Assembly (NCBI GenBank): GCA_002494015.1
Contig: DLAR01000031.1
Span: forward strand, 55 to 64,054
Length of the DNA: 64,000 nucleotides
Source: Porphyromonadaceae bacterium UBA7042
Lineage (GTDB): Bacteria > Bacteroidota > Bacteroidia > Bacteroidales > Muribaculaceae
Direction: 5' to 3'
A program made the translations under genes and the position numbers. This document shows positions 469 through 40,064 of the stretch, piece after piece; position 1 is the first letter of the stretch, and each line of letters starts with the position of its first letter. Below the pieces are notes generated by a model that was not told where the DNA came from, made no database searches, and saw only the letters and a list, made by a program, of their open reading frames with translations.

Positions 469-3107
469 AAAAGTTAGCTGTTTCAATCTGTGTGGCGTTG
501 GCGGCATTTTCTGCCGGAGCGCAGAACGTGACCGTTGACGCTGTAAACCGTCCTGCCGCTAAAGTTTTTGCCGAATTGATGGAGCATAGTGGCAAGAATT
601 TTGTCTATTCGGGTTCGCTTTTGCGCGGGATGCGCGTCACCGTCAAGGCTGTTGACCGGCCTATTGCCGAGGTGCTCGACATGATGTTCCGGGGTACTGA
701 TATCCGCTATAAAGTCCGTGGCAACAATGTGATTCTTTCAAGGCGTGAAAAGCCGGAACCCCGGCGCGTGACTGTCAACGGGTTTGTCCGCGAGGCCGGG
801 AGCGGCGAGGCGCTGATAGGCGCGATTGTAACCGACTCTGCGAGCCGCGCTGCCACCGTGGCCAATAACGGTGGTTTCTTCTCCATGACTCTCCCTGAGG
901 GAACTACGGTGCTCACAGTTTCCTATCCCGGACTTGAGTCGTTTTCCACGGGCCGCATAAAACTGCATTCCCCGCTGACGCTCAACGTGGAGATGGGGGA
1001 GCCGTCCCACACTCTCGCCGAGGTGGTTGTCACTGCCGCCAAGAACCGCTCGCTCGCCATGGAATCGTCGAATGTAGGGGTGGTCAATCTGTCTCGTGAT
1101 GCAATAGCCTCCACCCCGACGATTTTCGGCGAAAGTGACATAATCAAGAGCCTGCAACATGAGCCCGGAGTCTCGGCAGGTGTCGAGGGACTGGCCGGAA
1201 TGTATGTCCACGGCGGAGATTCTGACGAGAATCTATACATGCTTGACAACATACCGTTGTATCAGGTCAACCATTTGGGCGGTTTGTTTTCGGCGTTCAA
1301 TACCGAGGCTATCCGCAATGTCGATTTCTACAAGTCGGCTTTCCCTGCCAAGTATGACGGACGATTGTCTTCGTTCATGGATGTCCACACCCGTGACGGG
1401 TCTCTCGAAAGCCATCACGGCTCGTTCAGGCTGGGACTGACATCGGGCTCGTTCAACCTTGACGGCCCTATATGGAAAGGGCACACGAGCTATTCAATCG
1501 CCTTGCGCAGAACATGGTATGACCTCATTTCGATTCCCATCCTTGCGATGGTCAACCACGACAATCCCGATGAGAAAACCCGGGGGCGTTACTCGTTCAT
1601 GGACTTGAATCTGAAAGTAAACCACCATTTTTCTCCGCGCAGCAGTGCCCATGTAATGTTTTACTATGGCGACGACTATCTGAAGTCGGGAAGCTCGTCA
1701 GATGTGAGTGTTAATCACGACGGGTGGTTTGACGACTCGACGACACGCCTCCACTGGGGTAACCTCGTCTTTTCGGCAGGGTGGAAATATGTATTCTCAC
1801 CGTCGATTTTCGGCGAAATCACCGGGGCATATACGCGTTACGGCTCGTCGATGTACTATAAGTATTACAGCGGAGAGCGTCGCGATGGGGAAATCGTCTC
1901 GTGGAGCGACGAGCGCATCGACAGCGACAACAACATCCATGACTGGATTCTTCGGGCCGACTTTGACTGGCGTCCTGTTCCGGGACACACTGTCAACTTC
2001 GGTGCCGGATATACACGTCATTCTTTCCTCCCGGGCCGCTCGACACGCTCAGTGAAAACCGACGACATGCTTGTTACTGCAACTGACAGCGTGTGGTCCT
2101 ACCGCGCTGATGAGGCCAATGTCTATATAGGCGATGACTGGCGTCCCTGTGACCGCTGGCGCGTCAACATCGGTCTTCACGGGAGCCTGTTCAGCATAAA
2201 CGGCTCGACCCATGCGGCTCTTTCTCCCCGCTGCGCCGCTCGGTATACAATCAATGACCGCTGGGCAGCAAAGGCTTCTTACAGCCGCACGTCGCAGTAT
2301 GTCTACCAGCTTGCCCAAAGCGTGATTTCATTACCCACCGACCAGTGGATGCCGATTCTCCCCGGGCAGAAACCTCAGACAGCCGACAAGATTGCTGCCG
2401 GAGTCTATTATGCCCCTGACGAGCGGTGGACTATCTCGCTTGAAGGGTATTACAAGTGGATGCGCAACATCGTGGAGTATCGCGACGAGTATTATACCAT
2501 TACCCCCGGCATGGGGTGGGCGGCGCGCATGACCGAGGGCCGAGGGTCGTCACGAGGACTTGATTTTAAGATTGAAAAGTCGGTGGGAAAGTTCACCGGT
2601 CACATTTCCTATTCGCTTATGTGGGCCGACAGGCAGTTCCCGGATAAGAATCATGGACGTCGTTTCCCCGCGCGGTTTGACAACCGACACAAAATCAACA
2701 TTGCCCTGAACTGGAAAATCAGTAAAAAGTGGGAGATGGGGGCGGCTTGGACAGGAATGAGCGGAAACCGCATCACGCTCCCCACCCAGTGCTGGGAAGA
2801 TCCCGGACTGGGACCTTGGGACTATGACATGGTTTATGCCACCGACATAAACAATTACCGACTCCCGTTCTATCACCGTCTCGATCTTAGTTTCACCCGT
2901 CACACAAAGCACGGGTTTTGGAACTTCAGCATCTACAACGCTTATTGTCATTTAAACACCATTAGTGTGTATCGTGATTATGACAGTAATGACTATCAAT
3001 GGGTTACGCTTCCCGATGGAACCGCTATGCTATACAGTCGCCCCGTCTTTCAGAAAGTGGGCGTAATTCCTTTAATCCCGTCAATTTCCTACACATGGCT
3101 ATTCTAA
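465..3107 (+). CDS. TonB-dependent receptor/transducer with N-terminal STN signalling domain
   Basis: Signal peptide; STN-like segment (NRPAAKVFAELMEHSGKNFVY...DIRYKVRGNNVILSR); CarboxypepD_reg-like segment (VNGFVREAGSGEALIGAIVTD); plug motif FGESDIIKSLQHEPGV. An 880-aa barrel ends in aromatic ...SYTWLF. Confidence 0.9.
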   Translation: MKKLAVSICVALAAFSAGAQNVTVDAVNRPAAKVFAELMEHSGKNFVYSGSLLRGMRVTVKAVDRPIAEVLDMMFRGTDIRYKVRGNNVILSRREKPEPRRVTVNGFVREAGSGEALIGAIVTDSASRAATVANNGGFFSMTLPEGTTVLTVSYPGLESFSTGRIKLHSPLTLNVEMGEPSHTLAEVVVTAAKNRSLAMESSNVGVVNLSRDAIASTPTIFGESDIIKSLQHEPGVSAGVEGLAGMYVHGGDSDENLYMLDNIPLYQVNHLGGLFSAFNTEAIRNVDFYKSAFPAKYDGRLSSFMDVHTRDGSLESHHGSFRLGLTSGSFNLDGPIWKGHTSYSIALRRTWYDLISIPILAMVNHDNPDEKTRGRYSFMDLNLKVNHHFSPRSSAHVMFYYGDDYLKSGSSSDVSVNHDGWFDDSTTRLHWGNLVFSAGWKYVFSPSIFGEITGAYTRYGSSMYYKYYSGERRDGEIVSWSDERIDSDNNIHDWILRADFDWRPVPGHTVNFGAGYTRHSFLPGRSTRSVKTDDMLVTATDSVWSYRADEANVYIGDDWRPCDRWRVNIGLHGSLFSINGSTHAALSPRCAARYTINDRWAAKASYSRTSQYVYQLAQSVISLPTDQWMPILPGQKPQTADKIAAGVYYAPDERWTISLEGYYKWMRNIVEYRDEYYTITPGMGWAARMTEGRGSSRGLDFKIEKSVGKFTGHISYSLMWADRQFPDKNHGRRFPARFDNRHKINIALNWKISKKWEMGAAWTGMSGNRITLPTQCWEDPGLGPWDYDMVYATDINNYRLPFYHRLDLSFTRHTKHGFWNFSIYNAYCHLNTISVYRDYDSNDYQWVTLPDGTAMLYSRPVFQKVGVIPLIPSISYTWLF

Positions 3108-4129
3108 GAAAATATTTAGTGATACTCACAGTAGTGCTGGTTGTTACCGGCTGCTATACCAACTTTGAACCTGACATCGAGAGCCGCCCGGTGCTGTGCA
3201 TGAACTCGCTGCTGGTTCCGGGAGAACCTTTGACCGTCTCGCTGACCCGGACATGGCGGTGGTCAGAAGGGGAGCCCGACTATAATCTCGACATTATCGT
3301 GCGCGATGCCGAGATTACCTACACCGTCAACGGCTCTCAATGCGGGACACTGACTTTTGATAATAAAAAATACCGTGCCGACTATATCCCCGAGCCGGGT
3401 GACCATGTCGTGCTTTCGGCCCACAGCGACAAATATGGCGATGCTACAGCCGAAGTCACCGTGCCGGTTGCCGTGGCTATCGACCGCGTTGAAACCGATG
3501 TGCTTGACATTACTGAATCAATCTCTGTTGATAGCGATACTCTTTGGGAAATAAAGGCCAATTTTAAGGTTTGGTTCACTGATCCGGGTGATCAAGAGAA
3601 TTTCTATCTTTTCGGTTATGATTTTTACAACCCCAAGGGCATGACAGTGCCGATAAATCCCGATGACCCTTGGGGCAACCGTTACTATTGTTTCGGATTA
3701 GCCTACTGTTCAGCCCTCGATTATGAACAGGAACCGATTTTCGGGGAACACATAGGGGTGATAGAAACACTCTTTGGCGACAGCTATGGTTACTCGATGT
3801 TCAGCGACCGCACCATATCGGGGAAAAGCTACCCGCTCCGCATTTCGGCCCCGAGACTGAGTTACAAGCTGTTTGACCCTACCGATAATCCCGAGTTGCG
3901 CACCTCCTCGATCAATATGATTCTCTACAGCATCTCTAAAGGATACTATCGTCATTTGCTCGGCTTGTGGGAGCGAAACGAGGGTATGGCCGGGTCAATA
4001 GGCGGGTCTGGACTGGGTGACGCAGTGTGGGATGTCAGCAATGTCTCGACCGGGGCTGGGGTGGTAGCCGCGCGGACAGCCGCCGTGTACCCTGTGCAGG
4101 TTTACCCGCTTGTTATTAGCAATCGTTGA
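3095..4129 (+). CDS. DUF4249-like lipoprotein (usual partner of this TonB-receptor family)
   Basis: ATG at 3095 gives MAILRKYLVILTVVLVVTGC (lipobox). The gene overlaps the receptor 3' end by 13 nt. The position directly after a CarboxypepD_reg TonB receptor is the usual DUF4249 context. Confidence 0.6.
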   Translation: MAILRKYLVILTVVLVVTGCYTNFEPDIESRPVLCMNSLLVPGEPLTVSLTRTWRWSEGEPDYNLDIIVRDAEITYTVNGSQCGTLTFDNKKYRADYIPEPGDHVVLSAHSDKYGDATAEVTVPVAVAIDRVETDVLDITESISVDSDTLWEIKANFKVWFTDPGDQENFYLFGYDFYNPKGMTVPINPDDPWGNRYYCFGLAYCSALDYEQEPIFGEHIGVIETLFGDSYGYSMFSDRTISGKSYPLRISAPRLSYKLFDPTDNPELRTSSINMILYSISKGYYRHLLGLWERNEGMAGSIGGSGLGDAVWDVSNVSTGAGVVAARTAAVYPVQVYPLVISNR

Positions 4130-13815: not shown

Positions 13816-14538
13816 TTAGCTATCCTTTTTTTCTTTAGATAAAGCCTCCCTAATCAAACCTTTAATAAAATCCTCGGCTTGGTTTTGGCCGATGGCTTCT
13901 ATTAAGTTATTATAGTCCTCTACTTCATTTCCGGTAAAGCTGAGTATTATGCGTCTCTCTTGGTTGCCTGAAATATGTGTATAGTTTTCTGGGAAAGCCC
14001 AAAAACATCCTAAACAAAAGGCAGGGTTCTTACTTTCCCAATTGGGACAATGCTCACATGACCAAGATTTTGCTCTATTTGCAGAAGGACAAAGTAGCAT
14101 AAAGAAGCTAGTATCTTTGCCCTGTTCGCCTGCTATTTCGTATGGTATTCTGTGATCAACCTGAAGAAGCGAAGGGTCTATAGACTCTTGATAAATGAAG
14201 CATATTGCACCATATTCTTCAATTAATGCCTTTTTTAGAGCTTTTGATAGCGCAGTTCTTCCTGCACTTTTAGACATCTTATCTCTATACTTCTCATAAT
14301 TTCCCAAACGATAGGCGGCAATGGTTCGTCCGTCAGAATCTTTTGTACGAAAAGTTTCTATTGGAATGCCTTGTTCGCGCACATCGCGAACTGCTCGAGG
14401 AGGATGATTATAGCCATAAATTGCTTTAATCTCCTCTGAGGTTATACTGCCGTTCTTTAATATATGAGCTATAATTGTTGCAGGTCGCTTTGCTGTTACT
14501 GAAAGAAGTTTCTTTTTAAATTCTTCTGAAATTACCAT
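13816..14538 (-). CDS. HNH-family nuclease with N-terminal winged-helix region; putative type II restriction endonuclease
   Basis: HNH core LQVDHRIPYE...CPSANRAKSWSCEHCPNW, plus a further Cys pair (CLGC). It lies 5 nt downstream of and is co-oriented with a Dam-family methyltransferase. The gene is visibly AT-rich. Confidence 0.55.
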   Translation of the reverse strand: MVISEEFKKKLLSVTAKRPATIIAHILKNGSITSEEIKAIYGYNHPPRAVRDVREQGIPIETFRTKDSDGRTIAAYRLGNYEKYRDKMSKSAGRTALSKALKKALIEEYGAICFIYQESIDPSLLQVDHRIPYEIAGEQGKDTSFFMLLCPSANRAKSWSCEHCPNWESKNPAFCLGCFWAFPENYTHISGNQERRIILSFTGNEVEDYNNLIEAIGQNQAEDFIKGLIREALSKEKKDS

Positions 14539-14543
14539 CGCAT

Positions 14544-15455
14544 TTATACAAATTTAAGTTCAGATTGATAACATGCTTCTTTATCAAGTTTTACGTTATC
14601 TAACAGATTCGGAGTAACATAAAGAGCCTCGATTGTCTCAATTCTTTTACCTAAATAAAGTGCTTGAGTTGAAAGTCCAGCGTTTAGGTTAATCTTTATA
14701 AGATTCAATTCAGAAGGAAGGTCTGCTCCATAAGTTTTATCACCAAGAGCTCCGTCATAGCTAATTAAGAAATCAATATTTCTTTTACATAATTCTTCAA
14801 TAGCCAAAACAAATTCTTCATAACTTAACCCTGCGATATAACGATGATCTCGGACATTGGAAACTCCCTGATAAGGAGGATCCATATATATAATATCCCC
14901 CGTTTTAGCCATTTCTAATATTTCCCGGAAATCTTTTGAATAAAAACGTGTTTTGCCATTTAGCAATAAAGAAATACCATAAATATTATTTCTCATGGTT
15001 TGTGGAGAGGTCCCATTTCTTCTTTTATCAGGGGATTGGTTAAATCCTCCCTCTGCATTATAGCGCACAGACCCTTTGACACAACGCGCTAAAAGATATA
15101 ACATATAAGAAGCTTTTCTTTCGCCGTTATTGAAGTCATCTCGAACCTTATAAAAATGAGCTTCAGAACCACCATTAAAAGTGAACTGTTCCTGCCATAC
15201 TTCAGTATATGCATCAATTAATACGTTAGGACTTTCTGTAGCAGACTGTATAACAGAGATAATGTCAGGATTTAAATCATTTATGATAAATTCTTTTGCC
15301 CTTTGTTGATAAGCGGTAGCAATAGAAATAGCGGCCATACCTGAGAATGGCTCAATCAATCTATTGAATTTCTTTGGGATGTACTGAAGAATCTGAGGGG
15401 CTAGTTTTCGTTTAGAACCCTGATATTGAACTATATGCGGAACTGACAATTTCAT
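14544..15455 (-). CDS. DNA adenine methyltransferase, D12/Dam family (alpha class N6-A MTase)
   Basis: N-terminal QYQGSKRKL and EPFSGMAAI (FxGxG SAM motif) and C-terminal IYMDPPY (DPPY catalytic motif), in alpha-class order. ATG at 15455 gives MKLSVPHIVQYQGSKRKL, like Dam N-termini. Confidence 0.85.
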   Translation of the reverse strand: MKLSVPHIVQYQGSKRKLAPQILQYIPKKFNRLIEPFSGMAAISIATAYQQRAKEFIINDLNPDIISVIQSATESPNVLIDAYTEVWQEQFTFNGGSEAHFYKVRDDFNNGERKASYMLYLLARCVKGSVRYNAEGGFNQSPDKRRNGTSPQTMRNNIYGISLLLNGKTRFYSKDFREILEMAKTGDIIYMDPPYQGVSNVRDHRYIAGLSYEEFVLAIEELCKRNIDFLISYDGALGDKTYGADLPSELNLIKINLNAGLSTQALYLGKRIETIEALYVTPNLLDNVKLDKEACYQSELKFV

Positions 15456-15524
15456 ATCGCAAATATACGACTTATTTTTAAATAACACAAGAAGCCAATC
15501 CCACGGATGCACGAGTGTCGCATC

Positions 15525-15871
15525 TTAATTTTTTACAACGTCAAAACTTTTTAATGCATAAAGTAGGCAGTCATTGTTCCATCCCGCATTCTTTCTATGT
15601 CCTTTGACACCCATTGATGACACTTTTGCGTTCCTGATAATGTTCAGTCCAATTCGGTTGGGCAGATGAAGAAATTTCTCAAGCCAGTCAATCTTGCATT
15701 ACCGTAGTCCTCGATTTCGTTCCATCCCTCGACTCAGCAGATAACTGCGCAAAGCGATATGAACAGGATAGCATCAAGGCTGTGTTTCTGTGTGCGTTCC
15801 ACGCGTGGGTTACTGATGGAAGAGAAAAATCTATGGGAGAGTTGGAAAGTATCATACACTATGAACGACTG
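15525..15871 (-). pseudogene. Decayed N-terminal fragment of an ISAs1-family (H-repeat-associated) transposase
   Basis: The minus-strand frame reads ...FFSSISNPRVERTQKHSLDAILFISLCAVICGVEGWNEIEDYGNARL.... This is the DDE_Tnp_1-associated N-terminal signature (DPR..R...H.L.DIL.I..CA...G...W..IE.). It is then frameshifted to ..FLHLPNRIG... There is no start codon and no DDE domain. Confidence 0.6.
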
Positions 15872-15986
15872 TCAGCCTATTTATATTGGTAAACTGCCGT
15901 TAAGTTTATTTAAGATGCGTCTGCCCTGTAAAACCCCGGTTTTGTCCCGAGTAATATTTAATCCGTAAGTATTATTCTTTGAATAG

Positions 15987-16014
15987 CCGGGGGTTGCAGT
16001 TTCGCAACCCCCGG
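15987..16014. repeat. GC-rich hairpin A (ccgggggttgc-N6-gcaacccccgg)
   Basis: 11-bp perfect stem read directly. It shares the core GGTTGC..GCAACC with hairpin C. Confidence 0.8.
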
Positions 16015-32768: not shown

Positions 32769-32829
32769 GTAAAAACAATCTAATTGCTCTCAAAAAAAAC
32801 GCAAAAACTCACATAATGGATTAAATAAA

Positions 32830-32885
32830 CATCCTGAAAGGCAGTTTAAAAATTGACAATGATTTTTAAACTGCCTTTCAGGATG
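32830..32885. terminator. 24-bp perfect-stem hairpin downstream of the Sel1-repeat gene
   Basis: catcctgaaaggcagtttaaaaat-tgacaatg-atttttaaactgcctttcaggatg. Confidence 0.55.
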
Positions 32886-32985
32886 AAGATTCTGAGGGCA
32901 AATTGCCGGCTCATCTGTCAGCCGGGATGCGTGCACCTGCTTTATGACTGATTTGGCAACCGTTTTTGCATTTCAGCCCGGCAGG

Positions 32986-34584
32986 TTATTTTTTCTTGTC
33001 GGCGGGGGCAACGTTGGGAAGTGTGGCGAGAAGTGCGGGGAGCGGGTCGTTGTAGGATGCGTCGTTCAGTGCTTTGGCCTGCTCGTTATCGGCCTCGACA
33101 CCCCATCCGTTTTCATAGCATGTGGCCAGACGGGTCGCGGCCTCGCGGGTGAGCTGGCACTGGGCGCGGGCATCGAGATAGTATTTCACTGCGGTCTCGT
33201 AGCTCTGGTTAACGTTGCGGCCGTCATAGTAGAGGTCGCCGAGGTAGCACTGGGCAGGGGCGAAATTGAGGTCAGAGGCGGCCTTGAGGAGTTCGAGAGC
33301 CTTCATGGGGTCGCGGGTGACATCGGTGCCGGTCTCGTAGCGCACACCCATGAGGTACTGCGCGTAGGGTTCGCCTGCCGAGGCGGCTTTTTCAAGAGCC
33401 TTGATGCCTTTCTTGATATTTTTCTTGGGGTTGTCGTTGTCAAGAAGGATGAGGGCCTGCATTGTCGCTCCGACGGGAATCTTGGCTTTTTCGACAATTT
33501 TGAATTTCTTGGCGGCTTCTTCCCATTTCTTGTCGTTGATCATCAGGTCAAGGCCGTCGAGGTAGGCGCGGAAGGGGGCGGCCCAAGCGGTATCGTTGTC
33601 AGCCTCGTATTTTTTGATAATCTGGCGGGTATATCCGCGGGTAGAGCATTTCCCGAGCCACACGGCTGCCTGATAGTAGTCGACAGGCACACCCTTGCCG
33701 TCGACATAGAGCTTGGCGAGCTGATACTGGGCTGCGGGGATTCCGGCCTCGGCGGCTTTTTTGTACCATTTGGCTGCTTCGTCGGGGTTGACGGCTGTTC
33801 CACGGCCTTGTGCGTAACAGTTGGCAATCTGATATAGGGCCATCGGGAAACCGGCGCGGGCGGCTTTCATCATTGTCACGAATCCTTGAGAGGGGTCGGC
33901 GGTCACACCTTTACCTTCAAGCAACAGGCGCCCCACATAGAAAGTCGAGGGGAGGTCGCCCTTGTCAGCGGCTTTGCGGAACCACTTGAGAGCCTCGGAG
34001 CCGTTGTTGGCGTTGAGGTGCATAAGACCGAGTTCACGTTGGGCGTCGACCGAGTTGCGGGTGGCTGCCGATGTGAAGTATCTGATAGCTGCGTCGCGGT
34101 CTTTTTTTAGTTCTTTTCCAACGCCGTTCTGATAGCAGAGGGCGACGTAAACGGTATTGAACACAGGCTCGCCGCGGTCGGCAAGGGCGATGTTTTGGTC
34201 AAGGAGCTGTGTGTTTCCAAGTTCGATTGCGCGGTCATAGAGTTTCATGGCCCGGATTGAGTCGGGAGCGACACCGTGGCCGAGCTGGTAACACACGCCG
34301 AGGTTGCCTATAGCGAGGGGTTGTCCCTGCTTGGCGGCGCGGAGCCACCACTGGACTGCGTCGTCATAGCTGACCCCTTTGCCGACGTAGGTGCCGGTGT
34401 AATACCAGTTCCCGACAATGTTCTGAGCATCGGCATCACCGGTGCGGGCTTTTAGAACGATGGAGTTTACGCTGTCACGCGAGACTGAGTCTACGGGCGA
34501 AATGGGAGATTGGGCGGCTGCGCCGAGACCCATTGCGAGGATGCCGGTGGTGGCAGCGATGGTGCGGATGAATGAGGTTTTCAT
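32986..34584 (-). CDS. Secreted Sel1-like repeat (SLR/TPR-like) protein
   Basis: Signal peptide plus more than 10 repeats of the A..WY.KAAE.G...AQ..LG.CY..G.GV..D pattern. Confidence 0.85.
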   Translation of the reverse strand: MKTSFIRTIAATTGILAMGLGAAAQSPISPVDSVSRDSVNSIVLKARTGDADAQNIVGNWYYTGTYVGKGVSYDDAVQWWLRAAKQGQPLAIGNLGVCYQLGHGVAPDSIRAMKLYDRAIELGNTQLLDQNIALADRGEPVFNTVYVALCYQNGVGKELKKDRDAAIRYFTSAATRNSVDAQRELGLMHLNANNGSEALKWFRKAADKGDLPSTFYVGRLLLEGKGVTADPSQGFVTMMKAARAGFPMALYQIANCYAQGRGTAVNPDEAAKWYKKAAEAGIPAAQYQLAKLYVDGKGVPVDYYQAAVWLGKCSTRGYTRQIIKKYEADNDTAWAAPFRAYLDGLDLMINDKKWEEAAKKFKIVEKAKIPVGATMQALILLDNDNPKKNIKKGIKALEKAASAGEPYAQYLMGVRYETGTDVTRDPMKALELLKAASDLNFAPAQCYLGDLYYDGRNVNQSYETAVKYYLDARAQCQLTREAATRLATCYENGWGVEADNEQAKALNDASYNDPLPALLATLPNVAPADKKK

Positions 34585-34647: not shown

Positions 34648-34655
34648 CAAAGTTA
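34648..34655 (-). promoter_or_regulatory. -7 box (TAACTTTG on minus strand) for the Sel1-repeat gene
   Basis: CAAAGTTA on the plus strand, 64 nt upstream of the ATG at 34584. Confidence 0.35.
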
Positions 34656-34747
34656 GCTCGCAGCGTGGGGTAAATGCAAATTTTTTGTGTCATATCACAC
34701 GGAATCGCCGGTTTTTATGACCAAATACCCCGTTTGTCCGGTCAACT

Positions 34748-36247
34748 TTACTCCGTGGCAGGGAATTCCTCGGCCGGCGTTGTCTCACGGTTGCGGTGGG
34801 CGTCCTTCAGGCGGCGGGACAGGTCGCTTTCGCTCTGTTTTTTAGCCTTGCTGCCTTGGTTGCGGTTGTCAGAAGGAGTCTGGGATTCAAAAATGTTGCG
34901 AATCTGTGCCGCGCGTACTGAATCGGCTGCGGAAATCGAGTCGCGGCGGGCTTGCTCGACACGGGCCGAGTGGCCGCGATAGATCAATACTGTTGCAATA
35001 ACGACAACGACTCCGATGATGATGCCGATAATTATGCCGTTCATGCCGTTGCCGCGTCGTGAGGACGGAGTGTAGTTGCGGCGGGTGGCATTGACGTCAA
35101 AGCGACCGTTTCCGCCGTTGCCATTAATCGGCGGCACGGGAGGAACCGGCGGCACAGGGGGAGCCGGCGGTTTCACGGGTGTCGGACCGTCGTTCACGGC
35201 TACAATATCGATGTCATCATCGCTCAGCAGAATCTCGGGGATGTCATTGTCGGTCACCACTCCGTCGCCGGTTACAGGTGGCGGCGGTACAACTGCGTGC
35301 CCTTTGCTGTCAAGGTCTTCGAGGAATCGCTCGATAGAGGGGGTGCGGGTGTTAGGGTCAAATGCCATCGCGTTGATGATGGCCATGCGGGTGGAGGTCG
35401 AGAGCTTGGCCGGGAGATAACGGTTTATCCATTCCGGGTTGATCTGGTCGGCCGCGTCGGGGTCTTTGCCGGTCAATAGGAAAAATAGTGTCGCACCGAG
35501 GGCATATATGTCGAGACGAGGGTTGAACGACGAGGTACCGCATGTCTGCTCGTAGGGGGCGTAACCATAGGTGAATCCGCGCAGTGTGGAACCCACAGTC
35601 GCCTTGCCCGAGCGGTCAAAATGGACGGCAGTGCCGAAGTCGATGAGAACCGGGTATTCGGTGCCGGTAAACTCGTCGCGTTTCATGATGATGTTGCTCG
35701 GTTTCAGGTCGAGGTGCAAGAGCCGGTGAGGTTCGCTGTGAAGGATTTTCAACGCACCTGCAATCTCTCGGATGATGGCCACGGCATGTTGCTCGTCAAG
35801 ACGGCCGCCGTTGTCGCGCACATAATTTTCCAGATCGCCGCCGTCGAGATATTCCATTACATAATAGAATGTGTCGTTGGCGCGGAAAATCTCGTTGACG
35901 CGCACGATGCGGTCGCTGAGGGCGCAGATGCCGTGCAGCCGCCGGGACTCAAGCTCAAAATCCCGTGCCGAGTTGTTGACCTCGGTACGGGTTGTCTTGG
36001 GCGCAATCATCGTCGAGCCGTCGTCGTCACGATAGCATCCTTTCTGAAAATAGAAAAACTCCTTGATGGCATACTGGCATTTGCGCGGGATGTTTCCGTC
36101 ATAGACCACCGATGACGCACGGTAGACTATCCCGAAAGCACCTGAGCCGAGCGCCTCCTCGATGGTGTAGACGTGGTGTTCGGACTGTAGCCGGGTTCCC
36201 GGTTTAAGTGCGCTGTCCTGCAAAATACTCGATTGGTTGTCGGACAT
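34748..36247 (-). CDS. Hanks-type Ser/Thr protein kinase: Pro-rich linker, single TM, short charged C-terminal tail
   Basis: GSGAFGIVYRA (G-loop), YAIKEF (catalytic Lys), HLDLKPSNI, DFGTA, YAPYE. Then PPAPPVPPVPPVPPINGNGGNG, TM GIIIGIIIGVVVVIATVLIY, and a ~77-aa Arg/Lys/Ser-rich tail. Confidence 0.9.
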   Translation of the reverse strand: MSDNQSSILQDSALKPGTRLQSEHHVYTIEEALGSGAFGIVYRASSVVYDGNIPRKCQYAIKEFFYFQKGCYRDDDGSTMIAPKTTRTEVNNSARDFELESRRLHGICALSDRIVRVNEIFRANDTFYYVMEYLDGGDLENYVRDNGGRLDEQHAVAIIREIAGALKILHSEPHRLLHLDLKPSNIIMKRDEFTGTEYPVLIDFGTAVHFDRSGKATVGSTLRGFTYGYAPYEQTCGTSSFNPRLDIYALGATLFFLLTGKDPDAADQINPEWINRYLPAKLSTSTRMAIINAMAFDPNTRTPSIERFLEDLDSKGHAVVPPPPVTGDGVVTDNDIPEILLSDDDIDIVAVNDGPTPVKPPAPPVPPVPPVPPINGNGGNGRFDVNATRRNYTPSSRRGNGMNGIIIGIIIGVVVVIATVLIYRGHSARVEQARRDSISAADSVRAAQIRNIFESQTPSDNRNQGSKAKKQSESDLSRRLKDAHRNRETTPAEEFPATE

Positions 36248-36274
36248 TATTTCGTTCTGTTGATTCTGTCGTTT

Positions 36275-36805
36275 TTAGTTGAGAATGAGAAGGGTGGAGC
36301 CGAGCATCAGGCGGTCGCCTCGGTTGAGAGCGGCAGGACGTCCCGGGAAACAAGGTATGTCGTTGATAGTGACGGGATTGGTTGCGTTTAGGACTTCGAG
36401 CGTATGGGCAAACCCGCCGGGAACGGCAGTTGTGGTGATTGCTACCGAGCGGCGTGACATCATTCCGTCGTCGTCAATCTGAATGTCGCTGGGCTGGTAG
36501 ATGTCGGCGCGGCCGAGTGTCACGGTCCCTTCGGGGAGCACTGCCCCGGAGCGTCCGTCAATGGGAAGACCGTCGGCTCGGCGCAGATAGTGTGGCACTG
36601 CGGGTTCATGTTCAGGAAAGGGGAGCGGAGAGGTGACGGGAGCTTTGACAGGCGTGGCAGCACACGCCTCGGGCGGGAAATTTATAATCATTACCTTGCC
36701 GCAGGCCGGGCAGCGGAGCCGTCCCACTCCTGCCGACGCGGGAGGACGCACGCTGAGCGTCATCCCGCAGTCGGGGCAAGTGATTTTGAGGATTTTCTGA
36801 GCCAT
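36275..36805 (-). CDS. Zinc-ribbon plus FHA-domain protein
   Basis: N-terminal CPDCG...CPACG (two CxxC pairs). The C-terminus is FHA-like: ..VTLGRAD..DIQIDDDGMMSRRSVAI...NATNPVTINDI...LNRGDRLMLGSTLLIL. It is divergent from the consensus (SRRS instead of SR.H). Confidence 0.65.
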   Translation of the reverse strand: MAQKILKITCPDCGMTLSVRPPASAGVGRLRCPACGKVMIINFPPEACAATPVKAPVTSPLPFPEHEPAVPHYLRRADGLPIDGRSGAVLPEGTVTLGRADIYQPSDIQIDDDGMMSRRSVAITTTAVPGGFAHTLEVLNATNPVTINDIPCFPGRPAALNRGDRLMLGSTLLILN

Positions 36806-36831
36806 TGTGATGAAACGAGAGGGTGGAAAAA

Positions 36832-37752
36832 TCAGGAGATAATGTCGCCGCTATAGGCTTCGCCTAGAGAGTCGGTGTGGTCGTTGTCGGCATCGTAGGC
36901 CAGATAGTCGGGCGCGGGATTCATGTCGAGGAGCGCGTCGTCTACTGTCATTTCAAAAGGAGTTCCTTCAGTACTGTCTGCAAATTCGCCGCCATCGGTG
37001 ATGGTATCAAATGTTCCGTCGCCGGTAGTGTCGACGAGAAAACCTTCGGCTCCGTTCTCCAGATGGAAGGATGCCTGTGTTGCCTCGGAGCCATCGACCA
37101 TGTAGACGGTTCCGATTTCATCGAATGTCAGCACGGCATCAGGGTCGATGTCGAAATCGTCGACTTGCTCCACGTCGAGGATTTCCATCGCGACAAGGTC
37201 GGGGTCTTCGGGAGGCAGAACTTTGCCGTCGACGATAATCTGGTCAATGTCGATGGGTTCTTCGGGTTCTTCGGGTTTTTCCGGGGTGTGGGGTTCGTCG
37301 GGAATGTTATTTCCGCCATTTCCGCTGTTACCGCTGTTGCCTCCGTTACCGCTGTTGCCTCCGTTACCGGTATTGTTGTCAGAATTGTTGGTGTTCTGGG
37401 AGGATGTTCCGGTAGAGCCGGAAGTGCCCTGAATATTGTCTTGGTTTTCGTGCTGTTCGGCGTGTTGTCCCGATGTCGAGTTTCCGTTATTGCCGTTTCC
37501 GGTGTGGCCGGAATTTCCCTGAGTGGCAGAAGCGGCCACGCCGCCTCCGGCAACCTGTGATGCGATTTCTTCGGGAGTGAGGTTTTCATCGTCGTGGTCT
37601 GAGCCGTCGAAAATCTCGTTGGCTGCGGCTACCGCGCCACCTCCCAAGATTGCGGCACCTCCCATCATCGCGGCACGTTTTGCGGCTTCGTTGTCTTTTG
37701 TCGACTTGGTTGCTACACGCTGGGTGTTCTTATTGGTGTTCTGAGTATCCAT
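36832..37752 (-). CDS. Acidic low-complexity protein with Gly-zipper hydrophobic segment and Gly/Asn/Ser repeats; function unknown
   Basis: Basic N-terminus, AAMMGGAAILGGGAVAAA, then GNGGNSGNGGNSGNSGNGGN (18-bp DNA tandem repeat at 37330-37365), PEKPEEPEEP, and a strongly acidic (Asp/Glu-rich) C-terminal half. I recognise no domain. Confidence 0.6.
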   Translation of the reverse strand: MDTQNTNKNTQRVATKSTKDNEAAKRAAMMGGAAILGGGAVAAANEIFDGSDHDDENLTPEEIASQVAGGGVAASATQGNSGHTGNGNNGNSTSGQHAEQHENQDNIQGTSGSTGTSSQNTNNSDNNTGNGGNSGNGGNSGNSGNGGNNIPDEPHTPEKPEEPEEPIDIDQIIVDGKVLPPEDPDLVAMEILDVEQVDDFDIDPDAVLTFDEIGTVYMVDGSEATQASFHLENGAEGFLVDTTGDGTFDTITDGGEFADSTEGTPFEMTVDDALLDMNPAPDYLAYDADNDHTDSLGEAYSGDIIS

Positions 37753-37791
37753 GATTTTAAATTTTAATTGTTATTGTTTTTGTTTCTGATG

Positions 37792-37799
37792 CAAAGATA
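37792..37799 (-). promoter_or_regulatory. -7 box (TATCTTTG on minus strand) upstream of the acidic-protein/FHA/kinase genes
   Basis: CAAAGATA on the plus strand, 40 nt upstream of the ATG at 37752. Confidence 0.4.
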
Positions 37800-37873
37800 A
37801 TGTGTCGCATCACGGGGAAGCAAATTTTTCAAGGCTTCCGTTTCGGGTTAGAGGGATTTATTGACGAATCGCC

Positions 37874-38611
37874 CTATTTGGCTGACGAGGGTTCGGCGTC
37901 CCAAGTGCAGATGACTTTGTCCATCATGCCGACAGGAGCAATCAGTTGAGGGTGTTGCTGGTCGTCAGAGCGTTTTACAACGTCGGCAAACACATATTTG
38001 AACAGCTCTTTTATCGTTACCTGCTGGTTGCTGTCATAGTCGCCGCGTCCGCGCATTCCTTTGAGCAGTCCTTTGGTAAAGAATCCTTGTCCTGCGATTG
38101 TTGACTCGATGGAAAGTTCGTTTCCACGGCAGGAGGTAAATATGGCATATCCTTCTTTGGCCTTAGGCTTTCCGCCGTTATTGAGCTGGTTGACAATCGT
38201 TCCGGCCATGCACGCGTCAATGAGTATTATTTTTTCCTTGGCCGCCGAGCGGTCGAGTAGGGCGAAAAGGTTGGAGTAGGGAACTAATCCGTCACTTGCC
38301 AAGAAATTGTTTTCGCAGCCGTGTCCCGAGAAATAGAAAACAACACGGTCGTCGGCCTGCGCGCGGTTGCAGATGGCGCGGAGCTTGCTGAGGATGTTTT
38401 CTCGGTTGGCATACTTGCTTGTAAGCAGAGTCACGTCAGGGGTCTGCGTCTTCATCAGTTTGGCAAATGCTTTGGCGTCTTTGGTGGTCTGTGCCAGATT
38501 TATGGTTGAGTCGCCATAGTTGGAAACGCCGCACACGAGTACGAATGTGCGCGCACCGGCAATGGGTGCGAGCATGACACAGAAAAGCAAAATTAAAAGA
38601 AGTCGTTTCAT
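37874..38611 (-). CDS. Secreted caspase-like cysteine peptidase (family C14)
   Basis: ATG at 38611 gives the signal peptide MKRLLLILLFCVMLAPIAGA. The catalytic dyad context is ..VVFYFSGHGCEN.. (His) and ..IILIDACMAGT.. (Cys, caspase QACxG-like). Confidence 0.75.
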   Translation of the reverse strand: MKRLLLILLFCVMLAPIAGARTFVLVCGVSNYGDSTINLAQTTKDAKAFAKLMKTQTPDVTLLTSKYANRENILSKLRAICNRAQADDRVVFYFSGHGCENNFLASDGLVPYSNLFALLDRSAAKEKIILIDACMAGTIVNQLNNGGKPKAKEGYAIFTSCRGNELSIESTIAGQGFFTKGLLKGMRGRGDYDSNQQVTIKELFKYVFADVVKRSDDQQHPQLIAPVGMMDKVICTWDAEPSSAK

Positions 38612-38651
38612 TTTTATGATTATTTCAGTGTGTTGATAAGTCAAGTAAAGA

Positions 38652-39026
38652 TTATTTGGCACTTGAAGCAAATGCTTGTGCAATCGCCTTTTTGTAGCCT
38701 TTGAGCAAGTCTTTGGGCACGGAGAGGGAGTAGGCGTTTTTACCTCGGTCGCTGAGTGTGAGTTTCTGATTGAGGACGCTGATGCGGGTAAGGTATCGCT
38801 GGTTGATTATCAGGCTGCGCCCCATGCGGGCAAAGATGCCGGGACGGTCCTTGGGCATGGAGTCTCGGATCATGGTTTCAAGGCGTGACAGTCCGAGGGT
38901 CAGCAGCAGGGACTGACCTTCGATGTACATTACTTCGGTGTAGTTTCCCTGAGCCCTGAGATAAGCAACTTTTTCAAGGTCGATGATGATTAGCTCATCA
39001 CGGGAGTTTATGCATAGTCTTGGCAT
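38652..39026 (-). CDS. Stand-alone LytTR-family DNA-binding protein (no receiver domain)
   Basis: 124 aa: ..DELIIIDLEKVAYLRAQGNYTEVMYIEGQSLLLTLGLSRLE......F.R.GRSLIINQRYL.. is the LytTR pattern. Confidence 0.75.
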   Translation of the reverse strand: MPRLCINSRDELIIIDLEKVAYLRAQGNYTEVMYIEGQSLLLTLGLSRLETMIRDSMPKDRPGIFARMGRSLIINQRYLTRISVLNQKLTLSDRGKNAYSLSVPKDLLKGYKKAIAQAFASSAK

Positions 39027-39053
39027 GGCGGTGTGATTTTTATTAATAAGGTT

Positions 39054-39908
39054 TTACATGATTTCTTCGGGAGTAAAGGTATCGGTAGCAATGACTTTGT
39101 CAGTGCCGTAAAGGACATATTCATAGCAGATTGAGTATCCGTGTCGTAGCGGGACTGACAGCGAGGGGTCGTCAGTATAGCCGTCATGAAGTGACCCGGC
39201 TGTCTCACGGTGGTTTGCGGCAACGTTTTCAGCCAAGTCGGCATAATCATCAGCCGTCCCGGGGAGTGACATGACGTATGTGATTTTGCGGCCGACGTGG
39301 TCGGTGCGGATTTCGGCGATGTCAATTTCTTCGGAATTATCGGTTATGCCGTTTTTGCGGGCGAGATTGATCAGCAAGTCAACTTCGGCTTCGGGTGAGG
39401 CGAAAATGCTGTCAAGATACTCTTTGTTAGGGGTAATGGATGCGATGACTTTCTCGGTCGCGTCGGGAGTGCCTTTGGTGCCGATAGCAAGGACTACAAA
39501 TGTCAATGGGGGCCGGGTAAAGGCATATATTTTACCTGAAACCGTTTCTCCCTCGGCCGTTCCGTCACAGTCGGCGACCAGAGTTTCCATTCCGGCAACA
39601 GTGGCAGTGTGGGGTGCGCCGATGTTGAGACCCGGGATTGAGGTCGAGAAGTTTTCGTTAATCTGCATTGATAGGAGCGATTCGGCACTGTCCTGATACA
39701 ACGCTCCGAAAGTGACGATTACGTTGTTGCCGTCTATGCTTGAAATTGATACGGCCGAGATGATTTCGTTTTCTTCAGCGGGTTCGTCAAGATAGCCTGT
39801 CGGGGTATCGAGTGAAAACAGTTGGGTGTTGACATGGTGTGTGTTGTCACAAGCAGTCAGGAGCATCACCGACACAATGAGTAAAAAGGCTTTATTGAAA
39901 AAATTCAT
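39054..39908 (-). CDS. Lipoprotein of unknown function
   Basis: Lipobox VMLLTAC. 284 aa, acidic, no recognisable motif. It is the first gene of the module. Confidence 0.6.
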   Translation of the reverse strand: MNFFNKAFLLIVSVMLLTACDNTHHVNTQLFSLDTPTGYLDEPAEENEIISAVSISSIDGNNVIVTFGALYQDSAESLLSMQINENFSTSIPGLNIGAPHTATVAGMETLVADCDGTAEGETVSGKIYAFTRPPLTFVVLAIGTKGTPDATEKVIASITPNKEYLDSIFASPEAEVDLLINLARKNGITDNSEEIDIAEIRTDHVGRKITYVMSLPGTADDYADLAENVAANHRETAGSLHDGYTDDPSLSVPLRHGYSICYEYVLYGTDKVIATDTFTPEEIM

Positions 39909-39957: not shown

Positions 39958-39965
39958 CAAATATA
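39958..39965 (-). promoter_or_regulatory. -7 box (TATATTTG on minus strand) for the lipoprotein-LytTR-caspase genes
   Basis: CAAATATA on the plus strand, 50 nt upstream of the ATG at 39908. Confidence 0.4.
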
Positions 39966-40064
39966 CAAAAAGATTTGGATAGAAACACAATAATAGTTAA
40001 AATTTTAAACCGTTGCGATGAACTCAATCGCTAAAATCGCTCAATCGCGATGCTATTAATATGA

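Follow-up and report, generated by a model that had tools for sequence, protein, structure and literature searches.

What brings together, in a single run of genes, a DNA-binding protein, an exported protease, and a Ser/Thr kinase with a putative phospho-Thr reader? We took up this question for a locus in Porphyromonadaceae bacterium UBA7042 (contig DLAR01000031.1), working with the whole 64-kb stretch of DNA that was analyzed, referred to here as the window. The original prediction had placed six co-oriented minus-strand genes at positions 34748 to 39908, coding for a lipoprotein, a stand-alone LytTR DNA-binding protein, a caspase-like protease, an acidic protein, a Zn-ribbon/FHA protein, and a Hanks-type Ser/Thr kinase. 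The listing of open reading frames (ORFs) and the sequence both agree with this layout in ORFs, coordinates, and spacing, with intergenic gaps of 27, 40, 121, 26, and 27 nt from the lipoprotein to the kinase gene. The answer that we favor, with a probability of roughly 0.5, is that these genes belong to a conserved trans-envelope signaling circuit of Bacteroidales with the LytTR protein as its output, of which the window carries the version of the Duncaniella lineage. The module probably relays cell-envelope signals to gene expression.

The evidence that carries this answer is, in the first place, conserved linkage. Starting from each of three independent anchor genes, we tested it in some 115 loci, comparing the window with loci fetched from relatives (numbered here with an L). 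Scanning one genome per GTDB species with a caspase alignment gave 25 loci from Muribaculaceae, Sangeribacter, Muribaculum caecicola, Prevotella, Leyella stercorea, and unclassified Bacteroidales, and a tblastn map showed FHA, kinase, and other module genes as neighbors, with their order kept, in all 25. With the C-terminal domain of the acidic protein as the anchor, the order FHA-caspase-acidic protein was found in 3/3 distant members that were looked up. For the third anchor, an alignment of the LytTR protein was scanned against metagenome contigs; this found 242 LytTR relatives, of which 80 loci were kept. Counting for each partner the loci with enough downstream sequence, we found downstream of LytTR an acidic protein in 48/48 loci, a caspase in 56/57, a Zn-ribbon-FHA protein in 42/46, a membrane FHA protein (FHA-2TM-Zn-ribbon, with TM for transmembrane) in 65/73, a Sel1 protein in 27/31, a PP2C phosphatase in 37/44, and a kinase in 30/40. 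From all three anchors, linkage is conserved far above chance, which upholds the proposal that the envelope parts, the cytoplasmic kinase/FHA pair, and the LytTR protein form a functionally linked module. One of the fetched loci, L025 (CAVKKI010000067.1), is labeled Oribacterium sp. (Firmicutes) and carries a Prevotella-type module, probably through bin contamination.

The usual full order of the module is LytTR, FHA-2TM-Zn-ribbon protein, caspase, acidic protein, double-Zn-ribbon-FHA protein, PP2C, and kinase, followed by Sel1 or another secreted protein. A minimal form, present in L108 to L114 between unrelated genes, consists of LytTR, caspase, acidic protein, and, as its last gene, Sel1. 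Given that it holds just these four, we define them as the core, and the phosphorylation layer (kinase, FHA, PP2C) is a frequent, optional add-on. The kinase/FHA pair is therefore linked to the module, as had been proposed, but it does not share core status, being absent from the minimal form.

The limits of the module also had to be redrawn at both ends. Beyond the kinase lies a gene for a Sel1-repeat protein (Pfam Sel1, E=2.5e-61) that the original prediction had left out and that the linkage data make a core member. It is adjacent in L001, L004/5, L006, L016, L026-L031, and L036-L038, and a terminator scan found no minus-strand terminator-like site between the kinase and Sel1 genes. At the other end, the lipoprotein turned out to be a lineage-restricted add-on and not a module member: it forms only 5 protein clusters in all, each at least 69% identical, is found in L006, L007, and L035, and is missing from every other locus examined apart from a 48-aa remnant in L001. 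That ORF (L001, 505-651) retains the signal peptide and first residues of the lipoprotein (36% identity over 42 aa); it is a decayed relic, which shows the gene to be dispensable. The lipoprotein had no match in Pfam, NCBIfam, or PADLOC, and its AlphaFold2 model was unusable (pLDDT 42.5). The nearest genome locus to the window is L006, with a caspase 98% identical to the window's, and a 93%-identical match of the Zn-ribbon/FHA protein is named Duncaniella sp. by NCBI. In this clade (the window, L001, L006, L007, and L035), the module has no membrane FHA protein and no PP2C, its FHA protein has a single Zn ribbon, and the kinase precedes Sel1. A membrane-FHA gene sought elsewhere in the window was not found. 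The window thus carries a reduced derivative of a module that includes PP2C and the membrane FHA protein in most relatives.

The second line of evidence is a conserved promoter architecture within the operon. A TAnnTTTG box had been noted in the 121-nt gap between the caspase and acidic-protein genes; the box is indeed there (TATCTTTG, 37799-37792), and all related loci keep it. It forms the -7 box of an internal promoter, P2, together with a -33 element AATTTGC (37826-37820) and, further upstream, a half-site 1, TTCGTCAATAAATCC (37868-37854), and a half-site 2, CCCGAAAC (37847-37840), the latter 21 nt downstream of the former. The gap aligns gaplessly across 16 loci, with a fixed register. 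Counted from the first base of half-site 1, the consensus reads TTCRYMMAnnAAyCC at position 0, (G)TTCAAAC at +21, TTTG at about +45, and TAnnTTTG at +69, frequently with CATCAGAAAC directly past the -7 box. We found the composite pattern of half-site 1, both promoter boxes, and their spacing 19 times in 997 kb of fetched DNA, each time within the caspase-to-acidic-protein gap. A weight matrix trained on these 16 loci scores 25 to 38 solely at the P2 position, including in loci outside the training set, and recovers the site in 64/80 independently fetched metagenome loci. Full-motif second copies stand downstream in L090 and L101.

The 21-bp phasing of the P2 half-sites corresponds to the geometry of LytTR sites. 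For LytTR regulators and LytTR regulatory systems, the reported sites are 9-bp direct repeats that are separated by 12-bp spacers and lie upstream of the promoter (PMC6193735), and L110 contains three 9-mers at exactly this 12-bp spacing (TTCATCCAA, TTCATCACG, TTCAACCAA). A P2-like register recurs at P3, upstream of Sel1, where a half-site 1 variant TTGGTCATAAAAACC (34724-34710) is followed by AATTTGC at -33 (34682-34676) and a -7 box TAACTTTG (34655-34648). The distances from half-site 1 to the -33 element (42 nt) and to the -7 box (69 nt) are the same in P2 and P3, and a TTGGTCAC variant in the P2/P3 register is also found in L028 and L030. The first promoter, P1, consists of CCAAATCTTTTTG followed by a -7 box TATATTTG at 39965-39958, a block that is invariant in the window, L006, L007, and L001 despite differing flanks. 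A sigma-70 promoter scan was uninformative, as it is for Bacteroidetes. Between the VanW stop codon and P1, the window has a tandem GCGATTGAG / CGATTTTAG / GCGATTGAG array (40023-40048, minus strand); we rejected these GCGATT repeats as a conserved site because their copy number differs, from three in the window to two in L006 and L007, while L001 lacks them.

Profile searches bore out the remaining domain calls of the original prediction, directly for LytTR, Peptidase_C14, and Pkinase and through homologues and a family profile for FHA. The putative binder of the half-sites, a 124-aa protein of pI 9.9, has LytTR as its sole significant Pfam domain (28.2 bits, cut-off 22.6) and no receiver domain. 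Pfam LytTR is matched by 19/19 orthologues, and 18 aligned orthologues share 43-91% identity. A LytTR family profile searched against PDB sequences matched no LytTR structure; the LytTR call therefore rests on Pfam. In the rumen Muribaculaceae loci L027-L030, the LytTR position is taken by a 130-aa double Zn-ribbon protein (e.g., L028 9560-9952), which we considered as a divergent LytTR and rejected (hhalign probability 0.2%).

The protease matches Peptidase_C14 (PF00656) with E=3.6e-20 and 73 bits (cut-off 21.4) and is of the metacaspase/orthocaspase type, with a signal peptide (MKRLLLILLFCVMLAPIAGA/RTF) preceding a bare catalytic domain. Its start is an ATG (MKRLLL), the mechanical ORF extending to a TTG at 38683. 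The signal peptide and intact His/Cys dyad that had been predicted for the caspase are confirmed across the family, as His97 (FSGHG), Cys134 (IDAC), and the N-terminal signal peptide are kept in 33/33 orthologues. The closest NCBIfam model, caspase_w_EACC1 (NF047832), gives 72 bits and stays under its cut-off of 140. The Asp two residues N-terminal of the catalytic Cys (IDAC) is conserved. An Asp at this position is a metacaspase feature tied to Arg/Lys specificity, so that it hints at Arg/Lys-type cleavage by the window's caspase.

The acidic protein founds, in our treatment, a new domain family, having no match in Pfam (16 members searched) or PDB. An exhaustive search with its C-terminal domain gave 115 representative clusters at 50% identity, whereas a word-indexed homologue search with the same domain found nothing. 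Across 105 full-length representatives, to which the composition figures below refer, the plan is constant: the protein opens with a short, basic N-tail rich in Thr, continues with an Ala/Gly-rich segment and an acidic linker rich in Pro, Gly, and Asn, and closes with a conserved, beta-rich C-terminal domain of about 120 aa, itself ending in a conserved acidic tail. The N-tail (about 24 aa) is 17.7% Lys+Arg, the segment after it (19 aa) is 63% Ala+Gly, and the linker (median 105 aa) is 25% Asp+Glu and 11% Pro. The 12 residues that lead into the hydrophobic segment hold a median of 3 Lys/Arg, and the 15 that follow it hold a median of 5 Asp/Glu; this charge asymmetry fits an N-in, C-out single-pass anchor, as far as membrane insertion can be predicted from composition. 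The original prediction of an acidic Gly/Asn protein with a hydrophobic segment held for the protein, but the segment is Ala/Gly rich and its hydropathy is only marginal (Kyte-Doolittle 1.33 in the window, below the usual 1.6).

Past this segment, Lys+Arg falls to 1.1%, compared with 17.7% before it, with a median of one Lys/Arg per ~225 residues and none at all in 26 members. Such a depletion would be expected if the protein shared a compartment with an Arg/Lys-specific protease; alternatively, it could simply ease export. The N terminus reads M-x-T in 76/105 members, and the residue at +3 is hydrophobic in 56. FHA domains prefer pTxx[ILV], and we count the match of the N-terminal motif to this preference in favor of the circuit. 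Structure prediction and Foldseek, which had been proposed as a way to place the protein, gave a folded core and no PDB relative: AlphaFold2 with an 81-sequence alignment models a small beta-rich C-terminal core (pLDDT 80-91), and Foldseek against PDB found no credible match for the C-terminal domain (best E=0.36, TM-score ~0.2). Loci L027-L030 carry extra paralogues of the acidic protein of 342-470 aa. Separately, a dozen independent human-gut contigs end 1.65-1.70 kb past LytTR (L054, L058, L065, L067, L072, L075, L076, L078, L085, and others), and the one inspected, L054, breaks ~90 nt into the acidic-protein gene. This suggests that strain-level variability in the length or sequence of the low-complexity linker breaks assemblies.

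The kinase matches Pfam Pkinase with E=5.7e-28, and its motifs GSGAFG, AIK, HLDLKPSN, and DFG are conserved in 23 orthologues, all of them non-RD kinases in which HLD replaces HRD. As predicted, the catalytic motifs are intact and the TM helix is strong (residues 404-422, Kyte-Doolittle 3.19); it stands between a Pro-rich linker and a 77-aa basic tail that is predicted to be extracytoplasmic. One TM helix and a tail of 66-190 aa are found in all orthologues but two truncated ORFs. The FHA assignment of its neighbor was partly sustained: Pfam FHA had no direct match to the window protein at E<=0.1, but a 60%-identical orthologue reaches 28.1 bits (cut-off 20.7), further orthologues are also above threshold, and an 18-sequence family profile matches Mycobacterium FHA structures (3po8, E=2e-4) and OdhI/GarA. 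The signature GR...SRRS...TNP, with the pThr-contacting Arg, Ser, and Asn positions, is conserved along with CxxC...CxxC. The Zn ribbons number one in the window and two or three in relatives, and the window protein belongs to a family with just 5 close protein clusters. In L026 (12405-13781), the PP2C is fused to a TonB_C domain, which implies an inner-membrane-anchored phosphatase that would reach the outer membrane or cell wall.

Table 1. Positions of the module features in the window and of inverted repeats and accessory stretches in related loci.
Feature	Position	Strand	Remark or basis
P1 promoter	39958..39978	-	upstream of lipoprotein-LytTR-caspase unit
Lipoprotein, 284 aa, lipobox LLTAC	39054..39908	-	lineage-restricted accessory gene
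Stand-alone LytTR DNA-binding protein, 124 aa	38652..39026	-	Pfam LytTR
Caspase-like (C14) protease with signal peptide	37874..38611	-	Pfam Peptidase_C14
P2 internal promoter, predicted to be regulated	37792..37868	-	16-locus gapless alignment
Acidic protein, 306 aa, pI 4.05	36832..37752	-	new family
Zn-ribbon + FHA adaptor, 176 aa, predicted cytoplasmic	36275..36805	-	orthologues and profile
Hanks-type Ser/Thr kinase, 499 aa, non-RD	34748..36247	-	Pfam Pkinase
P3 promoter upstream of Sel1 gene	34648..34724	-	P2-like register
Sel1-repeat protein, 532 aa, nine repeats, signal peptide	32986..34584	-	Pfam Sel1
Hairpin terminator, 20 pairs, between module and topA	32834..32881	-	terminator scan
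Inverted-repeat pair, L002	216-229/402-415		
Inverted-repeat pair, L012	157-172/343-358		
Inverted-repeat pair, L016	3527-3543/3700-3716		
Inverted-repeat pair, L047	1658-1673/1855-1870		
Inverted-repeat pair, L089	6346-6362/6532-6548		
Accessory UpxY/radical SAM stretch, L002	447-1031		
Accessory UpxY/radical SAM stretch, L014	3983-4987		
Accessory UpxY/radical SAM stretch, L021	6056-8361		
Accessory UpxY/radical SAM stretch, L023	6044-8347		

The module is flanked by housekeeping genes that vary between lineages and are stable inside each lineage. In the window, genes for VanW, a methyltransferase, and transglutaminase-like proteins lie on one side and topA and a pseudouridine synthase gene on the other, while the flanks in relatives are truA and holB, an aminotransferase gene and dnaK, a GH109 gene and lpxB, or cydAB. 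An Rfam search with the terminator hairpin (32829-32888) returned sub-threshold look-alikes of animal microRNA precursors (31 bits against a gathering threshold of 90), which are spurious. Elsewhere in the window, the GC content dips to 0.376 at positions 14001-16000, compared with ~0.52 in the rest, across two ORFs (13816-14538 and 14544-15512); this patch may be horizontally acquired DNA.

Some relatives carry an additional layer of DNA inversion. Just 5' of the operon in five loci (Table 1), there are perfect inverted repeats of 14-17 nt, 156-181 nt apart and of the type ATCTCTT-N3-AAGAGAT. The CCAAATCTCTT repeats were first read as an operator, a reading that the inverted-repeat analysis replaced with inverton arms. 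The enclosed TAnnTTTG promoter, read directly, faces away from the operon in L002, L012, and L016, and the stretch between the repeats in L012, L047, and L089 contains the half-site motif of P2, reversed, within an invertible P1. A tyrosine recombinase gene (1993-3261) lies 260 bp from the repeats in L016; L014 starts within one repeat arm, and L013 starts 36 nt ahead of one. The repeats are likely invertons, which would make the module phase variable in these relatives, and the half-site motif in the invertible P1 would possibly give autoregulated expression. Around P1 of the window, we found no inverted repeats. Prevotella/Leyella versions start with an UpxY-family antiterminator (NF033644, 130 bits), a small membrane protein, and a TIGR04133 radical SAM/SPASM enzyme (496 bits, cut-off 425) and end with two or three secreted PEGA and FGE-sulfatase proteins.

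How might these parts work together? In the circuit that we propose, the exported parts (protease, Sel1 protein, acidic C-terminal domain, and kinase tail) would register envelope events, and these events would alter the state of membrane proteins. That change would free or activate LytTR, which would then bind the 21-bp-phased half-sites upstream of P2, and probably of P3, and drive the acidic protein, FHA, kinase, and Sel1 genes in a feedback loop. The kinase would phosphorylate a cytoplasmic Thr, and we see Thr3 of the acidic N-tail, a conserved residue, as the leading candidate substrate; the FHA proteins would read the pThr mark and tune the switch, with PP2C as the eraser in most lineages. 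In the predicted topology, LytTR is cytoplasmic, the caspase is periplasmic, the linker and C-terminal domain of the acidic protein reach into the periplasm, and Sel1 is exported. A trans-envelope arrangement is supported by the envelope-binding domains that the module carries in relatives, namely the PP2C-TonB_C fusion and the PEGA and FGE-sulfatase proteins.

Several observations weigh against this circuit. Half-site 2 of P2 is degenerate in the window clade (CCCGAAAC), the likeness of P3 is confined to half-site 1 and the spacing (half-site 2 is mismatched and the full matrix scores <7), P1 of the window has no phased half-sites, and Prevotella-type loci have no P2 motif. Upstream of the LytTR and lipoprotein genes, 9-12-9 repeats are not above shuffled controls (21 regions). 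L028 and L030 keep the half-site variant, yet they have no LytTR gene in the locus, so that the binder of the half-sites may be a protein other than LytTR. A cognate PP2C was not found in the window by tblastn. Since the hydropathy of the Ala/Gly segment is marginal in the family (median Kyte-Doolittle 1.48; >=1.6 in 31/105), the acidic protein could be wholly cytoplasmic. Finally, a step in which the caspase cleaves the tether is doubtful, because the nearly Lys/Arg-free acidic protein would be a poor substrate for an Arg/Lys-specific protease.

Literature searches for this gene combination gave nothing relevant, and none of the papers searched describes the system, in keeping with the earlier view that it matches no described one. 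The Hanks kinase/PP2C/FHA modules include the actinobacterial FhaA-FhaB-PstP-PknA/B cluster and PpkA-PppA-Fha1, which controls type VI secretion in Pseudomonas. As in our module, one operon encodes a membrane kinase whose domain outside the cytoplasm faces outward, one or two FHA readers, and a PP2C that erases the mark; in the type VI kinase module, periplasmic and lipoprotein partners also feed the kinase. The window has the competent kinase motifs and the adjacent FHA protein, but not the PP2C, and, unlike in these modules, no cell-wall synthesis or type VI genes are linked, the apparent output is a LytTR protein, and the kinase layer is dispensable. In the regulated proteolysis of single-pass anti-sigma factors and in the ExoR-ExoS pathway, a protease and a repeat protein, both periplasmic, work on a protein that crosses the membrane once and through which a cytoplasmic regulator is controlled. 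The logic is alike, by analogy only: there is no sigma/anti-sigma homology, and the presumed tether is nearly devoid of sites for an Arg/Lys protease.

In regulation, the module can be compared with HdrRM and BrsRM, two LytTR regulatory systems of Streptococcus mutans (PMC6193735). There, too, a receiver-less LytTR heads the operon, the next gene encodes a membrane protein (as it does in most of our relatives, with the FHA-2TM-Zn-ribbon protein), and 9-bp repeats with 12-bp spacing, to which the phased half-sites of P2 would correspond, lie upstream of the promoter, with self-feedback likely. In the window, however, the gene after LytTR encodes an exported protease instead of a transmembrane inhibitor, and the phased sites are at the internal P2 instead of the first promoter. 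The S. mutans systems have no counterpart of the caspase, the acidic protein, Sel1, or the kinase/FHA/PP2C layer. EACC1-caspase systems (PMC7159879) likewise pair a caspase with a small single-pass protein that has a helix of Gly and small residues and a predicted action at the membrane. They are found mainly in actinobacteria, whereas the present module is from Bacteroidales; in our module the two genes stand in the opposite order, the caspase carries a signal peptide, lacks a C-terminal effector, and reaches 72 of the required 140 bits, and the acidic protein has no EACC1-family match in NCBIfam. In other phyla, operons of a caspase and a sigma factor are conserved, and caspase homologues of other bacteria have Sel1 and FGE-sulfatase among their commonest fusion partners (PMC3501461). 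The module shares with them an operon that combines a prokaryotic caspase homologue with a transcription factor, as well as the Sel1/FGE-sulfatase association, but LytTR replaces the sigma-70-family factor, and Sel1 and FGE-sulfatase are separate exported proteins. The module thus fails at least one defining feature of the LytTR regulatory systems, the Hanks kinase/PP2C/FHA modules, and the EACC1-caspase pairs. We class it as bacterial phospho-Thr and LytTR signaling in kind, with one new protein family.

We also propose, tentatively and with the odds somewhat against it, that this is a new class of trans-envelope signaling systems confined to Bacteroidales, in which LytTR would be controlled by an exported metacaspase-type protease, a Sel1 protein, and a Lys/Arg-poor tether across the periplasm, in most lineages gated by kinase/FHA/PP2C through the conserved N-terminal Thr of the tether and in some cases switched by an inverton.

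Two other functions have to be weighed against signaling. In a pathway for envelope structure or surface remodeling, the acidic protein would be a structural, TonB-like tether through the periplasm or a secreted product, the caspase would mature or trim envelope proteins, Sel1/PEGA/FGE proteins would form a scaffold, and LytTR and the kinase would do no more than set the expression level. The protein plan described above, with an N-in anchor, a Pro/Glu-rich linker, and a small C-terminal domain, is TonB-like, a TonB_C domain is present in the L026 phosphatase, and depletion of Lys/Arg would shield a structural protein from an Arg/Lys-specific protease in its compartment. Surface loci of Bacteroidales are typically marked by UpxY-family antiterminators and by invertible promoters, and both precede the module in relatives, some of whose versions also contain the TIGR04133 enzyme. 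However, Foldseek found no match of the acidic C-terminal domain to TonB_C or another structural protein, no glycosyltransferase, transporter, or secretion-system gene is linked, and both an UpxY gene and an inverton are missing from the window. The constant DNA-binding partner and dedicated operator sites point instead to signaling, and we regard a primarily structural role as unlikely.

The other function, which the original prediction had raised as a phage-triggered or cell-death circuit, is an anti-phage or programmed-cell-death conflict system in which membrane parts would sense infection or damage, the caspase would execute, the kinase/FHA/PP2C layer would license this step, and phase variation would limit its cost. 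Pairs of a caspase and a small single-pass protein with a Gly-rich helix are proposed conflict systems (EACC1), and Sel1, PEGA, and FGE-sulfatase partners recur in such systems (PMC7159879). The best NCBIfam match of our caspase is of the EACC1 type, the kinase matches the mad6 and PD-T4-6 models of PADLOC-DB v2, accessory genes differ by lineage, the acidic gene is variable enough to break metagenome assemblies, and relatives have invertons and a tyrosine recombinase. Yet the PADLOC and NCBIfam matches are at the domain level and under family cut-offs: PADLOC-DB returned generic kinase models and one caspase model only, and the other four proteins had no match. Typical effectors such as an NTPase, a nuclease, or a pore-former are missing from the module, the exported protease bears no effector domain, the flanks are lineage-stable housekeeping genes, and a search of viral contigs with the caspase found no copy. 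A DNA-binding output with feedback promoters fits regulation better than suicide. With no direct support, a conflict role appears improbable to us.

The last alternative, that the genes are chance neighbors or loosely cotranscribed with unrelated functions, has in its favor that the lipoprotein truly is an unrelated lineage-specific neighbor and that the window alone is no proof of function, but it is refuted by the linkage counts, with order and content kept across Muribaculaceae, Prevotellaceae, and other Bacteroidales and the internal promoter conserved as well, and we give it next to no weight.

Signaling in gut Bacteroidales is known mostly through hybrid two-component systems and pairs of ECF sigma and anti-sigma factors, and Hanks kinases, FHA proteins, caspase homologues, and LytTR regulators have barely been studied in this order. 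The module joins these four protein classes in one operon with a dedicated, predicted operator, and it is common in Muribaculaceae and Prevotellaceae of the human gut, mouse gut, and rumen. Its DNA sites and candidate phospho-site are precise enough for direct testing. If the proposed circuit is true, it would give an exported bacterial caspase homologue its first physiological role in the phylum and yield a first LytTR regulatory system beyond Firmicutes with identifiable input parts, and it would add a new protein family of unusual composition and a further class of phase-variable loci.

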